Shown: piece by piece, positions 14,055 to 57,624 of the stretch
Numbering within the stretch: position 1 is the stretch's first letter
Layout of the letters: the number at the start of each line of letters is the position of its first letter
Source of the DNA: Candidatus Onthovivens sp.
Lineage (GTDB): Bacteria; Bacillota_I; Bacilli_A; RFN20; CAG-826
Length of the DNA: 64,000 nucleotides
Assembly: GCA_034087725.1 (NCBI GenBank)
Contig: JAXDXW010000016.1
Span: forward strand, 1,586 to 65,585
Reading direction: 5' to 3'
Notes under the pieces: generated by a model
Told to the model about the DNA's origin: nothing
Seen by the model: the letters and a program-made list of their open reading frames with translations, nothing else
Databases searched by the model: none
Program-made: the position numbers and the translations under genes

Positions 14055-14088
14055 TTTTAAAAAAATATTTGAGTTTTGCAGGGTTTTT
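14055..14088 (-). repeat. Dispersed 34-bp element copy (AAAAACCCTGCAAAACTCAAATATTTTTTTAAAA)
   Basis: 32/34 identical to the copy at 52431. Intergenic, ending 21 nt upstream of the whiA ATG. Confidence 0.85.
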
Positions 14089-14108
14089 ATTTAAAATAGC
14101 GAGTTTTT

Positions 14109-15068
14109 ATGGAAAAAATTACAAGTTTTACACAAGAAATCAAGGAAGAAATTTGCTCACTAAAAGAACTAGATTTTGAAAAATCTATTTCTTTACTTTC
14201 TGCATACATTAGAGCAAACGGATCTTTAGTCTTTAAAGGAGGACATGATTACATTGTTTTAGAATCCGAAAACGCAAAAACAGTTAAATTCATTTATCAA
14301 TTACTTAGAGACATTTTAAAAAATGTTGATGTTCATTTCTCATACAAAAGAACTATGAAGTTGAACAAAAACACTAAGTTTGTTTTAGAAATAAATAACG
14401 CAAAAGAATGTGCAGAATTTTTGAAATTAGATTTTTTAGAAAGTAAAATCCCTTATAGACTTACAGATAAACAAAATAAAATTAAAGGTTATTTTATGGG
14501 GTTATTTTTAGCTTGTGGATCTTGCAATGACCCAATTAGTACAAATTATCATCTTGAATTAGCTTTAAAAGATGAAGATTTTGCTCAGGCAATTTGTAAA
14601 TTATCTACAAAAATTAAATCAGTTAATTTTAATTTCAAAATAATAAAAAGACGTAATAATTTTATCGTTTATTTGAAGAAATCTGATTTAATTAGTGATT
14701 TTTTAGCTTTTATAGAAGCACAAGAAAGCTGTTTGAAATTTGAAGATGTAAGAGTAGAAAGAGACTTTTCTAATATTAATAATAGATTAATTAATTGCGA
14801 CTCATATAATTATAAGAAAACAATTCAAAACTCTAACAAGCAAATTGAGATGATTAATTTCATAGATGCAAAATTAGGAATTAAAAACATTTCTAATTCA
14901 AAGATTAAAGAATTGTGTTTGTTACGAATTGAATATCCAGAAGCGAATTATGTTGATTTAGCCCAATTTTTAGGTGAGAAATTTGGGATTTCAGTTTCTA
15001 AAAGTAGTGTTAACCATTTATTTAGAGCAATAAAAGATATGGCGAGGTCTTTAGGATATGAAAATTGA
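14109..15068 (+). CDS. whiA: DNA-binding protein WhiA
   Basis: Length and sequence are typical of WhiA (ICSLKELDFEKSISLLSAYIRANGSL, LAGLIDADG-like core, C-terminal HTH). It ends at a TGA stop. Confidence 0.85.
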   Translation: MEKITSFTQEIKEEICSLKELDFEKSISLLSAYIRANGSLVFKGGHDYIVLESENAKTVKFIYQLLRDILKNVDVHFSYKRTMKLNKNTKFVLEINNAKECAEFLKLDFLESKIPYRLTDKQNKIKGYFMGLFLACGSCNDPISTNYHLELALKDEDFAQAICKLSTKIKSVNFNFKIIKRRNNFIVYLKKSDLISDFLAFIEAQESCLKFEDVRVERDFSNINNRLINCDSYNYKKTIQNSNKQIEMINFIDAKLGIKNISNSKIKELCLLRIEYPEANYVDLAQFLGEKFGISVSKSSVNHLFRAIKDMARSLGYEN

Positions 15069-15282
15069 ACATATTGATATTAATTATGAGTTCGGGAAAA
15101 GAATTAAATACTTAAGAAAACTGAAAAAAATATCCCAGGAAGAACTAGCATTTAGATGCAATCTTAATAAAAACTATTTAGGCGATGTAGAAAGAGGAAA
15201 AAGAAATCCAACCCTGATGGTTATAGAGAAAATAGCTTCAGGGCTGGATATATCATTAGCAGAATTGTTTTTAGGGATGTAA
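15058..15282 (+). CDS. XRE-family helix-turn-helix transcriptional regulator
   Basis: HTH_3 pattern IKYLRKLKKISQEELAFRCNLNKNYLGDVERGKRNPTL. It overlaps the whiA 3' end by 11 nt. Confidence 0.8.
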   Translation: MKIEHIDINYEFGKRIKYLRKLKKISQEELAFRCNLNKNYLGDVERGKRNPTLMVIEKIASGLDISLAELFLGM

Positions 15283-54602: not shown

Positions 54603-54636
54603 AAAAACCCTCTAAAAGTCAATTATTTATTCTAAA
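54603..54636 (+). repeat. Dispersed element copy (AAAAACCCTCTAAAAGTCAATTATTTATTCTAAA)
   Basis: Begins 7 nt after the rsmG stop. Confidence 0.75.
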
Positions 54637-54757
54637 TTTTTATAAATAAATATTAATCCTAATAGTATTTTTTTATTTAGAATATACTTTTTATTTCTAA
54701 AAAAATTAAATTTTTTTAGTCTTTTAAACTATATTAAATATATATAGAATTAAAAAT

Positions 54758-56434
54758 ATGAAGCGTAAATTTGATATTGTTTCTATAATCGGAGCTACAA
54801 ATATTATTTTAGGTGTTATTTCGGTAACCATGTCTATTGTACTTTATGAGGTAGGCAAAGAAGGCATTAAGCAACAAGAAATTGAAATTGTTAATAAGTC
54901 AACACAAAATTATCTTAATAGAATAGACGCTTTATTTTTAAAATTTAGTGAATTATCATTTTCAATTTCGACATCCAATGAAACTGCAAAGTTAAGAAAT
55001 TATTCGTACGATAAAGCTGGTGATATTTATGGAAAAGTACAAGCTTTGAATGATTTTGATAAAAAACTAGAAAATTATCTTCTTTTTAATTCGTGCGTTA
55101 CAAATGTAGCAGCAAAGTTTTCTGATGTTGAAGAATATTCTTATGGGATTAGGCATTTAGCGAAATCTAGTTCAACAGAAGAGATGGATTACGTTTTAAA
55201 TAATTTTAATTTTTTCAGTTATTCAATTAAACTTCAAACCTATAATGAAAAATTATACTACTTATATTCCGATTCAGAAAACGAAGAATTTAAGATTATT
55301 GTGGAGTTGGATGATCAACAATTCATTAATTTTTTTGATCTTGAAACTAATTTAACTACTTCCTTTGGCAAGGGCTTTTTTGTTAATGATAAATTTATAT
55401 ATTCGATTTCTAATTATGATGTCCCTTTCGAAGTAATTATGAATGAAAATTTTGATAATTTATTGAATGCTAAATCTTACATTAAGTATCAAGTTTATAA
55501 TGACGTTTTTGTATTTAGATTTTCTATTGATTTGACGAATATTAAAAATAGAGGAATTATACCAATTGTATATCTCATAATTGGTGTTATTTTGATTTTA
55601 ACAGTTTCTATTTTAAGCTTTGTTACAACAATAAATTATTTAAAAAAGCCTATTAAAGAATTAAAAATAGGTATGAAAGAAGTTTCAAAGGGAAATTTTT
55701 GCTATAAGCTTAATATTAAAGTTAATACTGATTTTAAAGAATTAATTGATGGCTTTAACTCAATGACTCAACTTTTAAATACATATATTGAAGAAAAATA
55801 TTTAAATGAAATTCGTGTAAAAGATGCAAATTTTAAAGTTTTGCAATCACAGATTCACCCTCATTTTTTATACAATTGTTTTGCTACAATACAAAGTCTT
55901 TTATCTTTAGAAGAGTATGATAAAGCGAAAGAATTGTCAAAAGAACTATCATTATATTATTCGTATATTACAAAGAATAAAAATATATTAGTTTGTTTAA
56001 AGGAAGAACGGGATCACATGAATCGCTACTTAAAGATACAAAAAATTCGTTTCGGTGACTCTGTAAAATATGATATAGATCAACTGGATGAAAAATTTTT
56101 TGAATATAAAGTACCAAAAATAATTTTTCAGCCAATAGTCGAAAACAGTTTCAAATATTCTTTTAAAAACATCGATAACGGGCAACTAAAAATCAGCATC
56201 TCTGAAGATGATACTTACTTAAAAATATCTTTTGAGGATAATGGAACTATTACAGATGAAAAGATAGAGGAATTAAATAATAAAATTTTTGATCAAAATA
56301 TAGAAATTAGTGGCTTAATAAATGTTGTTCAACGAATTTTAAACTACTCGCAAAAAACTTCTTCAGTAGAAATTTCAAAGGGGACGGATTTAAAAGGCTT
56401 AAATGTTACTTTTAAATTAAAAAAAGTTATATGA
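54758..56434 (+). CDS. Sensor histidine kinase, YesM-like (two TM helices, HAMP, His_kinase/HATPase)
   Basis: HAMP region after the second TM helix, QIHPHFLYNCF His_kinase motif, and an HATPase C-terminus. Confidence 0.85.
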   Translation: MKRKFDIVSIIGATNIILGVISVTMSIVLYEVGKEGIKQQEIEIVNKSTQNYLNRIDALFLKFSELSFSISTSNETAKLRNYSYDKAGDIYGKVQALNDFDKKLENYLLFNSCVTNVAAKFSDVEEYSYGIRHLAKSSSTEEMDYVLNNFNFFSYSIKLQTYNEKLYYLYSDSENEEFKIIVELDDQQFINFFDLETNLTTSFGKGFFVNDKFIYSISNYDVPFEVIMNENFDNLLNAKSYIKYQVYNDVFVFRFSIDLTNIKNRGIIPIVYLIIGVILILTVSILSFVTTINYLKKPIKELKIGMKEVSKGNFCYKLNIKVNTDFKELIDGFNSMTQLLNTYIEEKYLNEIRVKDANFKVLQSQIHPHFLYNCFATIQSLLSLEEYDKAKELSKELSLYYSYITKNKNILVCLKEERDHMNRYLKIQKIRFGDSVKYDIDQLDEKFFEYKVPKIIFQPIVENSFKYSFKNIDNGQLKISISEDDTYLKISFEDNGTITDEKIEELNNKIFDQNIEISGLINVVQRILNYSQKTSSVEISKGTDLKGLNVTFKLKKVI

Positions 56435-57624
56435 ATATTGTAATTATTGATGATGAGCAAATCATTGCAAATGCTTTTTATAAATTGATAAAGGACAAAT
56501 TTCCAAATCATAATATATTTGTTTTCTATAAAAGCACAAATGTTTTGGATTTTGCAAAAAATAGCAAAATTGATTTATTAATTTGTGACATTGATATGCC
56601 TGTAATGGACGGAATTGAGTTAGCTTCTTATTTAAAGAACCAATTTATTCATATGGAAACTATATTTTTAACAGGAATGGACACATTTGACTACGTGTAT
56701 AAAGCAAACAAAATACAAGACTCCAAATATTTGTTAAAAATCGAAGATCAAAAAATAATTTTAGATAATATATCTTCATCTTTAGAAAAAATCGAGATTA
56801 ACAACGAACATGATATTAATCATTTTGAATTAAAAGCAGAGAATGAAATTTTGAATTTAGAGAAAGAAAATAATGAAATTAAAGAAGTTATTTTAAATGA
56901 TCAAAGTAATTCATGCATCCAATTTAACAACTTATTTTTTAATTTTGCCGTATTTAATAATGAGCTTACTTTTGATGAAATTAAGAAATTATATGGCGTT
57001 TTTAGAGGGTTTTTTAATTTAAAAGTAGGAAATATCGTAAACTTGAGTAACACTGAATTTGCATTATTTTCTTCTGAAATAATTGCAGAAGAATCATTTA
57101 AAAGAGTTAAAGATATAATTAAAAACGAGTTCGATATTGCAATAAATGTGTGCGTTTGTACAAATAAAATTAATGACGAAAATATTAATAAAATTTATAA
57201 AAGGTCATTAAACATATTAAATATTTATGATCTAAACATAGGAAATTATATCATTTACGAAGATATAATTAAAAACGAATTAGATGACTCGCATAAATTA
57301 ATAGTCCTTATTAAAGATTATATTTATCAAAATACTGATAAGGATATTTCTTTAAAACGAATTTCTAATTTAGTTCATTATAATGAGTCTTATTTATCAA
57401 GATTTTTTAAGAAAAATACAGGGAAAAATTTTAAAGATTTCGTTACTGAAATAAAAGTTGAAAAAGCAAAGAATTTACTCGCAAGCAGCGATATGCAAGT
57501 TAAAGAAATTTCAAAGAATTTAGGATTTGAATCCACATCTCATTTTCAGTATTTTTTTAAGAAAAACATCGGTTGTACCCCGCTAGAATATAGACACAAT
57601 AATATTGGGTTTAATAGTAAGTAA
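56431..57624 (+). CDS. Response regulator, YesN-like (REC + AraC-type HTH)
   Basis: REC domain (IVIIDDE..LLICDIDMPVMDG) and a C-terminal AraC HTH (ISKNLGFESTSHFQYFFKKNIGCTPLEYR). ATGA overlap with the kinase gene. Confidence 0.85.
   Translation: MNIVIIDDEQIIANAFYKLIKDKFPNHNIFVFYKSTNVLDFAKNSKIDLLICDIDMPVMDGIELASYLKNQFIHMETIFLTGMDTFDYVYKANKIQDSKYLLKIEDQKIILDNISSSLEKIEINNEHDINHFELKAENEILNLEKENNEIKEVILNDQSNSCIQFNNLFFNFAVFNNELTFDEIKKLYGVFRGFFNLKVGNIVNLSNTEFALFSSEIIAEESFKRVKDIIKNEFDIAINVCVCTNKINDENINKIYKRSLNILNIYDLNIGNYIIYEDIIKNELDDSHKLIVLIKDYIYQNTDKDISLKRISNLVHYNESYLSRFFKKNTGKNFKDFVTEIKVEKAKNLLASSDMQVKEISKNLGFESTSHFQYFFKKNIGCTPLEYRHNNIGFNSK
56991..57015 (-). repeat. Partial copy of dispersed element (AAAAAACCCTCTAAAAACGCCATAT)
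   Basis: Shares the exact 16-mer AAAAAACCCTCTAAAA with the copy at 54603. It lies antisense inside the response-regulator CDS. Confidence 0.45.

Follow-up and report, generated by a model that had tools for sequence, protein, structure and literature searches.

A dispersed DNA word in Candidatus Onthovivens and related uncultured gut Bacillota, and its possible role as a DNA-uptake signal

Why would AT-rich bacterial DNA carry one word of about 30 nt many times over, on both strands, between genes and within them? The question is raised by a 64,000-nt stretch of a Candidatus Onthovivens sp. genome (assembly GCA_034087725.1, contig JAXDXW010000016.1, positions 1,586 to 65,585; hereafter the window, meaning this whole stretch), for which an initial annotation made from the sequence alone had described a dispersed motif family. 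The consensus of this motif in the window is AAAAACCCTGCArAwCTCAAyTATTTTT. The reading that we favour, at a rough probability of 0.4, is that it would be a clade-specific, genome-wide word read on double-stranded DNA by one protein, with the enhancement of DNA uptake as its likeliest role. The word would then be a functional counterpart of the uptake signal sequences (USS) of Pasteurellaceae and the DNA uptake sequences (DUS) of Neisseriaceae.

The motif family lies where it was first placed, and well beyond chance. With up to three mismatches, its 29-mer core occurs five times in the window (0.00 in dinucleotide-preserving shuffles), and the 8-mer ACCCTGCA also five times (0.63 expected), in DNA of about 30% GC with a positive GC skew along the whole window. 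The core had been rightly judged rare by chance; only its count, given as four, had to be raised to five. Three near-identical copies (52431 on the plus strand, 17208 on the plus strand and 14055 on the minus strand) are as described, and the exact strings said to be shared by sub-variants are present. The comparison with shuffled DNA that the initial annotation had suggested ends in strong enrichment, as does the comparison with loci of related lineages. An assembly artefact is excluded by the occurrence of the motif in many independent assemblies, in frame.

A hidden Markov model (HMM) seeded with five window copies found 12 copies in the window at E<0.03. A second one, trained on 201 instances that all came from other genomes and none from the window, found 15 at E<0.1 (Table 1). 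By this other-genome HMM, the copies are confined to 14-55 kb, with none in 1-14 kb and none in 55-64 kb. It supports 14 of the 17 sites claimed at the outset, among them 28414, which had been labelled a partial core and scores as a copy (13.2 bits). At the remaining three, 21843, 24497 and 56991, the whole-motif match is not significant (E>3 or no match). Exact strings of 13 and 16 nt are common to 21843 and 56991 and genuine copies, and these two may be half-sites.

The logo from 219 core-anchored instances, AAAAACCCTGCA(G/A)A(A/T)CTCAA(C/T)TATTTTT, has an informative length of about 25 nt. Similarity ends at about 35 bp. Beyond this point there are only A/T tracts, phased at about 10-11 bp on both sides of the core over a span of about 65 bp, and this phasing is equal in coding and non-coding copies. 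The minimum free energy (MFE) of the consensus is 0, and the copies average -1.7 kcal/mol against -3.1 kcal/mol for random 40-mers, which indicates no secondary structure. Inverted partners accompany 13 of 131 non-coding copies, against 9.8% in controls, and a few copies are arms of terminators whose other arm is a partial copy in inverted orientation. Two copies in the window are built into terminators in this way (33340-33377 and 36285-36341), and those in loci L048 and L050 are alike. The copy at 33328-33361 pairs with a partial inverted copy in a 17-bp terminator hairpin (-21.1 kcal/mol, z -7.25). At 36286, the 5' half of the copy, AAAAAGCCTGC, pairs with GCAGGCTTTTT at about 36330-36341 to form a 12-bp stem (-18 kcal/mol, z -4.97). 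An Rfam scan found no family at any copy, only a lysine riboswitch and a tRNA.

The motif is shared by a group of relatives. A degenerate 23-nt pattern, scanned against one genome per GTDB species, matched at least 104 DNA stretches. Among the matches listed, about 15 metagenome-assembled genomes of uncultured gut or rumen bacteria, labelled Mollicutes, Bacilli, "Staphylococcaceae" or Candidatus Onthovivens, account for nearly all; a handful are single hits in unrelated taxa, about what chance would give, and none is from the window's own genome, the best nucleotide identity being 73%. Densities were compared at a fixed threshold of 13 bits, discounting the copy that had selected each tile. 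The window then has 13 matches in 64 kb, or about one per 4.9 kb, and genome CAYLSZ likewise about one per 4.9 kb. Tiles from motif-bearing genomes range from one copy per 4.9 kb to one per 8.7 kb, with lower densities in sparsely sampled genomes; outside the window and CAYLSZ the density is one per 7-10 kb or lower, and across the clade about one per 5-10 kb. Extrapolated from the sampled density, a genome probably holds some hundreds of copies of this long and asymmetric word. Metagenome loci picked by similarity to MnmG all proved to be from motif-poor lineages and were therefore used as negative controls; these mnmG-centred loci from other lineages have 5 matches in 999 kb, about one per 200 kb. 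Loci chosen by homology to ComFA are unselected for the motif; in low-GC relatives, Ca. Onthovivens sp. among them, such loci have 2-4 copies per 21 kb, and those of two other relatives have none. A scan of 2.9 million viral contigs gave no match.

Two metagenome contigs of sister lineages, L105 (ERZ779737 NODE-125) and L108 (ERZ808262 NODE-37), are syntenic with 42200-54400 of the window at 71-76% nucleotide identity, with MnmG 80-81% identical. They have only decayed or partial versions of the motif at the orthologous mnmG, cysteine desulfurase (sufS-like) and gene-end sites, and no indels. The mnmG copy (52430) is broken in both by substitutions without an indel, and is absent from more distant MnmG genes. 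At 49925, both have sequence of equal length without the core, and L105 has a partial copy at the spot orthologous to 42792. The two lineages are natural motif-minus controls, and these patterns hint that they lost the motif system.

How copies arise and persist can be followed in orthologous genes. MnmG of the window and of L031 (CAYLSZ) align without gaps at 77% protein identity. Third codon positions of the two genes are 51% identical overall, whereas the 40-nt motif region differs at one base. The mnmG gene of L031 has a second, antisense copy, and the window has a non-motif stretch of equal length there. In one aligned, indel-free segment of the amidohydrolase gene, the copy of the window is in sense and that of L082 (CAYLSZ) in antisense orientation, and L071 (JAQXNS) has none. 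Where the cysteine desulfurase gene of L105 and L108 has a proline codon, the motif-bearing genomes have one for glutamine, and this difference gives them CTGCAG. The comparison of relatives proposed in the initial annotation finds the motif in numerous related genomes and frequently at orthologous positions. Of 37 directed comparisons at alignable positions, 31 retain a copy in the same orientation at flank identities of 65-93%, among them 5 of 6 comparisons into the window, which is unselected for the motif. For example, the copy at 25793 is present in L082, that at 28395-28424 in L071 and L082, and that at 49925 in L031. Gene ends in L050, L035 and L070 that are orthologous to the one at 39251 have a copy in the opposite orientation.

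The motif further comes in dialects: the prevailing variant of CAYLSZ is AGATC, that of JAQXNS is AGAAC and that of the window is AAAAC. CCTTGCA occurs in some relatives, and orthologous non-coding sites bear the variant of their host genome. Substitutions without indels, conservation and the following of dialects, taken together, indicate that copies are made by point mutation, kept against neutral decay and shifted in concert within each genome. At motif positions 5-15, restriction-type palindromes occur in the dialects (for example at L070 4741-4776): CTGCAG (PstI-type) in most genomes and AGATCT (BglII-type) in the CAYLSZ dialect. The window dialect CTGCAAAA has neither palindrome.

Placement follows the ends of genes. 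Among 215 clade instances, 63% are non-coding or at the edges of open reading frames (ORFs), though 11.5% of the DNA is non-coding, and 80 lie inside ORFs, 42 in sense and 38 in antisense orientation. Non-coding copies mostly lie 0-30 nt past stop codons in either orientation, with a median of 15-21 nt to the nearest stop versus 82-134 nt to the nearest start, and at co-directional gene ends the two orientations are equally common (36 vs 36). Convergent gaps are enriched (27% of copies vs 13% of intergenic DNA) and divergent gaps depleted. There is no bias with GC skew (92 copies on the G-rich strand, 106 on the other) or with the majority gene strand (77 co-oriented, 78 opposite). Within the core region of the window, copies are 1.5-6.3 kb apart and spaced more evenly than random (coefficient of variation 0.46, P 0.005).

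The motif-bearing part of the window is housekeeping DNA, with whiA, metal ATPase, ABC ATPase (of an ECF-type transporter), truA, suf, mnmG and rsmG genes. The 23 kb at the two window ends have no copy (Poisson P ~0.001, for one window). They encode surface proteins (transglutaminase-like, Ig-like, subtilase), a two-component system and an adjacent putative sugar ABC transporter. The copy-free block at 1-14000 is consistent with accessory or fast-evolving DNA. Encoded there are a transglutaminase-like protein with Big_3, a 1501-aa protein without a Pfam match, a Big_2 lipoprotein and a 1238-aa subtilase with a PA domain.

This profile resembles that of known uptake sequences in many respects. 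The USS of Pasteurellaceae (the H. influenzae type is AAAGTGCGGT with AT-rich flanks) likewise extend over about 30 bp and combine a short core that contains G and C with A/T tracts in helical phase. They are also non-palindromic, occur in both orientations and in coding and non-coding DNA, have substitution-born coding copies in permissive segments, are conserved at orthologous positions between species, and have lineage variants. The layout of a core with phased A/T tracts recalls, as we understand it, that of the Haemophilus USS. Unlike the USS, the motif is of unrelated sequence, in an uncultured low-GC Bacillota host of the kind called 'Mollicutes-like', about 5-fold sparser and rarely in inverted pairs, with A/T phasing on both sides of the core. 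With the DUS of Neisseriaceae (GCCGTCTGAA and dialects, receptor ComP), the motif shares a word common at about the family level with species dialects, enrichment at 3' ends and in the core genome, absence from recently acquired DNA, and occasional inverted copies as terminators. The DUS differ in being 10-12 bp long, at about 1 per kb, and often inverted repeats in terminators, whereas the motif has about 25-30 bp and is mostly single; the DNA sampled showed neither a ComP-like minor pilin nor any type IV pilin. Published uptake sequences have dialects, gather in permissive coding segments, at gene 3' ends and in terminators, are commoner in the core genome and are absent from recently acquired DNA. 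The literature searched, including a 2025 survey, treats them as a feature of Pasteurellaceae and Neisseriaceae.

The favoured mechanism would run as follows. A surface DNA receptor of the transformation machinery would bind the GC-containing core (CCCTGCA..CTCAA) within the phased A/T tracts. DNA of kin would then be imported preferentially through ComEC, with ComFA and ComFC, and recombined. Such a bias in uptake would act as a molecular drive, fixing and keeping point mutations towards the motif where they are tolerated, that is, past stops, between convergent genes and in variable segments of proteins. Receptor and motif would co-evolve and thereby give rise to genome-specific dialects, and loss of the system would let the copies decay, as may have happened in the sisters L105 and L108. 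We infer that the reader protein would be part of the uptake machinery and that uptake would be biased. The combined profile of dialects, permissive coding segments, 3' ends and core enrichment, together with a comFA/comFC-like gene order, is the reason why we rank the uptake model first.

The gene order in question consists of a zinc-finger superfamily 2 (SF2) helicase that is ComFA-like, a ComF-family phosphoribosyltransferase-like protein, secA and prfB. It was found in L089 at 5565-7353 (CAYLSZ), and recurs in L185, L187, L189, L190 and L191 at about 10001-11800, which include Ca. Onthovivens and other relatives. We take the succession of helicase and ComF-family gene to be the comFA-comFC arrangement of Firmicutes. 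Homologs of the helicase are named 'competence protein ComFA' by JGI. The ComF match (TIGR00201, 78.5 bits) lies below the curated cutoff of NCBIfam, the second gene of L190 has no Pfam match, and sequence searches against the PDB did not identify the ComFA/ComFC-like pair more specifically. Two of the ComFA-like look-up loci have no motif copies. For Firmicutes, a tripartite complex involving ComEC has been described as promoting DNA transport (PMC12663950).

Other competence genes were sought as well. Regular expressions for prepilin, ComGA, the ComEC core, metallo-beta-lactamase, DprA and ComEA, run over tiles from the clade (about 0.8 Mb) and over the mnmG loci (1 Mb), gave a ComFC-like match only. 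Large multi-pass membrane ORFs that were considered as ComEC proved to be ABC, FtsX or MFS proteins. Marker expressions for lepA, topA, recA and dnaK, meant to locate com neighbourhoods, found nothing. The competence-gene search proposed in the initial annotation has in this way turned up comFA/comFC-like genes, but none of comEC, comEA, comG and dprA in the sampled DNA.

Several points weigh against a role in DNA uptake. To our knowledge, sequence-specific uptake has not been described for any Gram-positive-derived lineage; Gram-positive transformation is considered sequence-blind. Classical DUS and USS occur about once per 1-2 kb. With about one copy per 5-10 kb, and fewer in several genomes, the motif is several-fold below this. 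About half of published uptake sequences lie in terminators, whereas inverted partners accompany 10% of the non-coding copies here, as in controls. The genes for ComEC, ComEA, the ComG pilin and ATPase, and DprA were not detected in about 0.8 Mb of partial clade DNA by motif expressions and a few Pfam scans. Loss of ComEC has been reported for Erysipelotrichaceae, Acholeplasmataceae and Mycoplasma (PMC6299819), which may be neighbouring lineages of the motif clade. The host organisms appear to be uncultured, and biased uptake is inferred only. Finally, the sites of a conserved DNA-binding protein inside the cell would be expected, just as much, to show every one of the positive features.

Such intracellular sites are the chief alternative, in our estimate somewhat less probable than an uptake signal, and account for the data about equally well. 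They would be bound by an abundant protein with an architectural or topological role (nucleoid-associated, a domain-boundary or loop anchor, gyrase-recruiting or WhiA-like) and kept by selection on each site. A long non-palindromic motif with phased A/T tracts over about 65 bp suggests bending or wrapping of DNA; the spacing in the window is more even than random, and the enriched gene 3' ends and convergent gaps are where positive supercoils accumulate. Orthologous conservation and genome dialects would be expected if the sites co-evolved with the protein that binds them. One copy is found 21 nt upstream of whiA, and the explanation needs no competence machinery, which fits the reported loss of ComEC in the possibly neighbouring lineages. 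It is harder to reconcile with two copies in one gene (mnmG of L031) and with near-consensus copies in the middle of housekeeping genes in either orientation, which look like accumulation where tolerated, not placement where needed. Also, close sisters lost or never had the motif while synteny is visibly unchanged, so the system is dispensable, and no candidate protein was found.

The known architectural words also differ. The motif resembles parS, Noc-binding sites (NBS), matS and the cyanobacterial HIP1, an abundant word of unresolved function, as a word kept inside genes across species. Unlike the motif, these are short palindromes, and parS, NBS and matS have few to tens of copies in chromosome domains. 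That parS, NBS and matS are short palindromes in tens of copies counts against an intracellular binding site of this kind. Beside the whiA gene, whose product is a LAGLIDADG-derived DNA-binding protein, the plus strand of 14055-14088 reads TTGAGT-17 nt-TAAAAT. This near-consensus copy could lie there by coincidence, overlap a promoter, or point to WhiA as the binding protein.

It is improbable that the motif marks DNA as 'self' for a system of recombination, repair or defence, either in the manner of Chi or as a defence-exempt tag. That neither the 2.9 million viral contigs nor the accessory blocks of the window have the motif would fit, as would its clade-specificity with dialects and its dispensability in the sister lineages. 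Chi, the KOPS (FtsK orienting polar sequences) and the SRS (SpoIIIE recognition sequences) are over-represented, protein-read, non-palindromic words within genes, like the motif. They have 5-8 nt and are strongly skewed with the direction of replication. The motif, at about 25-30 nt, is three to four times longer and unskewed (92 vs 106), so that a polar word of the Chi, KOPS or SRS type was rejected on the strand counts and the informative length of about 25 nt. Furthermore, no associated system was found, and one copy per 5-10 kb is sparse for the control of end processing.

Less probable still is a role as a transcription signal, whether as promoter, operator or bidirectional terminator or as a protein roadblock where genes end. 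The position of non-coding copies 0-30 nt past stops, with A-run and T-run flanks, speaks for it, as do the promoter-like hexamers on the reverse complement of the copy at 14055-14088 and the copies within terminator hairpins. The distances to gene starts (median 82-134 nt), the depleted divergent gaps and the even orientations (36 vs 36) speak against it; so do the consensus MFE of 0, copies that fold more weakly than random 40-mers, and inverted partners at control frequency. Moreover, 37% of copies are intragenic in both orientations. Among these are conserved near-consensus copies within two genes, mnmG and that for cysteine desulfurase, in which a terminator or roadblock would do harm. 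The promoter was rejected on the lack of a -10 element in other copies and their avoidance of gene starts, and the intrinsic terminator on the lack of a hairpin in the motif, with separate hairpins flanking some copies.

A miniature mobile or repetitive extragenic palindromic (REP)-like repeat, spread by a transposase, or a remnant of a larger element, is the least probable of all and largely refuted. The motif shares with REP and bacterial interspersed mosaic elements (BIME), the Neisseria dRS3 and miniature inverted-repeat transposable elements (MITEs) that it is a dispersed short repeat of similar density, past stops and between convergent genes and mostly non-coding, and its genome-specific variants could reflect bursts of a master copy. 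Those repeats are palindromic, strictly extragenic and spread by REP-associated tyrosine transposases (RAYT) or other transposases, whereas the motif is hairpin-free, substitution-born and in frame within genes in 37% of copies, without palindrome or terminal repeat. Orthologous coding sites, whether they have the motif or lack it, show no indels. Beyond about 35 bp the copies cease to resemble one another, they persist at orthologous positions between sequences of 65-73% identity, and viral contigs gave no match. The initial annotation, which had seen no transposase, terminal-repeat or CRISPR-like structure and had named a larger mobile element as a possible refutation, is borne out by the same absence of indels and hairpins, the short extent of similarity and the spacing of copies. 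No transposase was noticed among the scanned window proteins, which were not systematically searched for one. A CRISPR array was rejected on copies 1.5-6.3 kb apart, on both strands and inside genes, and a sense-strand RNA-level element, suggested by the six coding copies listed in the initial annotation, which are all sense, on the 42 sense and 38 antisense copies of the larger sample and on the lack of an Rfam match.

Table 1. Copies of the motif in the window, with their genomic context and match scores; the third column gives position and strand as found by the other-genome HMM
Position	Strand	HMM hit	Context	Match
14055..14088	-	14088-	AAAAACCCTGCAAAACTCAAATATTTTTTTAAAA; intergenic, 21 nt upstream of whiA (14109-15068)	1 mismatch to 29-mer; 25.0 bits, E 1.7e-6
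17207..17242	+	17207+	CTGCAGATCTC variant; intergenic, between start of P-type ATPase gene (15283-17175, -) and end of ArsR-family gene (17393-17728, -)	28.8 bits, E 1e-7
23417..23449	-	23449-	diverged; sense, within amidohydrolase gene 22922-23698 (-)	13.1 bits, E 0.012; codon alignment
25793..25826	+	25793+	missed by the initial annotation; overlaps stop of M20 peptidase gene (24618-25817), convergent gap	13.6 bits, E 0.008
28395..28424	-	28424-	antisense, within ABC ATPase gene 27591-28490 (+)	13.2 bits, E 0.01
29699..29734	+	29699+	sense, within tRNA pseudouridine synthase (TruA-like) gene 29292-30092	17.1 bits, E 6e-4
31878..31908	+	31878+	convergent gap, past two terminator hairpins of nucleotidyl transferase gene (30895-31782)	14.6 bits, E 0.004
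33328..33361	-	33361-	diverged; 3-6 nt past stop of SDR gene (32438-33325)	11.3 bits, E 0.045
36286..36320	+	36292+	18 nt past stop of gene 34832-36268, upstream of lysine riboswitch	window-seeded HMM E 1.1e-6; other-genome HMM 15.9 bits
39251..39282	-	39282-	begins immediately past stop of ABC ATPase gene 38318-39250	21.3 bits, E 2.8e-5
42792..42827	+	42792+	11 nt past stop of HD/OB-fold gene 41858-42781; separate terminator hairpin 42835-42850 follows	22.3 bits
48420..48452	+	48426+	diverged; sense, within SufBD-family gene 48205-48975	window-seeded HMM E 0.0016; other-genome HMM 10.3 bits, E 0.09
49925..49959	+	49925+	sense, within cysteine desulfurase (class-V aminotransferase) gene 48975-50207	21.6 bits
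52430..52464	+	52430+	consensus copy; sense, within mnmG (52024-53901), encodes VKTLQNSTIFSK	0 mismatches to 29-mer; 27.8 bits
54603..54636	+	54603+	7 nt past stop of rsmG (53898-54596)	13.7 bits, E 0.0075

Some neighbours of these copies deserve a description of their own. The copy at 31878-31908 also overlaps the stop of a ferritin gene (31898-32383, minus strand). The lysine riboswitch at 36430-36596 (plus strand; Rfam RF00168, 80 bits) precedes an operon at 36655-39250 whose last gene is the ABC ATPase gene and which looks like an amino-acid ABC transporter; the copy and hairpin at 36286-36341 are just upstream of the riboswitch promoter region. A metal-resistance cluster at 15283-20583 comprises a P-type ATPase (630 aa), the ArsR-family regulator, a 189-aa ORF that we read as flavodoxin-like, and a 740-aa ORF that looks like a heavy-metal P-type ATPase, judging by its N-terminal CxxC. 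One strong copy sits in the gap between the gene for the 630-aa P-type ATPase and that for the regulator. Two large lipoprotein-like ORFs on the minus strand (43342-45222 and 45149-47158; 626 and 669 aa) are adjacent. If each is taken to begin at its first start codon, they overlap by about 74 nt, and the actual start of the downstream one is probably a later one.

The motif family seems not to have been described before. The initial annotation knew of no such element in low-GC Mollicutes-like bacteria, and the literature searched agrees: no publication has the motif sequence, none joins 'DNA uptake sequence' with RF39, and among those on RF39 or RFN20 that mention 'competence', none is about natural competence. 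If the uptake reading holds, this may be the first DNA-uptake-sequence family outside Proteobacteria, and a clade of uncultured, genome-reduced gut Bacillota that includes Ca. Onthovivens may practise sequence-specific, kin-biased transformation via a putative receptor, with the motif, its dialects and its decay in the sisters as a record of receptor gain, co-evolution and loss. We advance this wider claim tentatively, at less than even odds.

An uptake signal in low-GC Bacillota would mean that kin-selective DNA uptake evolved independently, and that gene flow in abundant uncultured gut symbionts would be channelled by a sequence tag. Should the motif have another function, it would represent a protein-binding site of a new and likewise unusual sort: long, asymmetric, genome-wide and with dialects that co-evolve. 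Either way, the motif can be used as a taxonomic marker for binning and as bait for its binding protein, and the motif-bearing genomes and their motif-poor sisters form a natural pair for comparative genomics.

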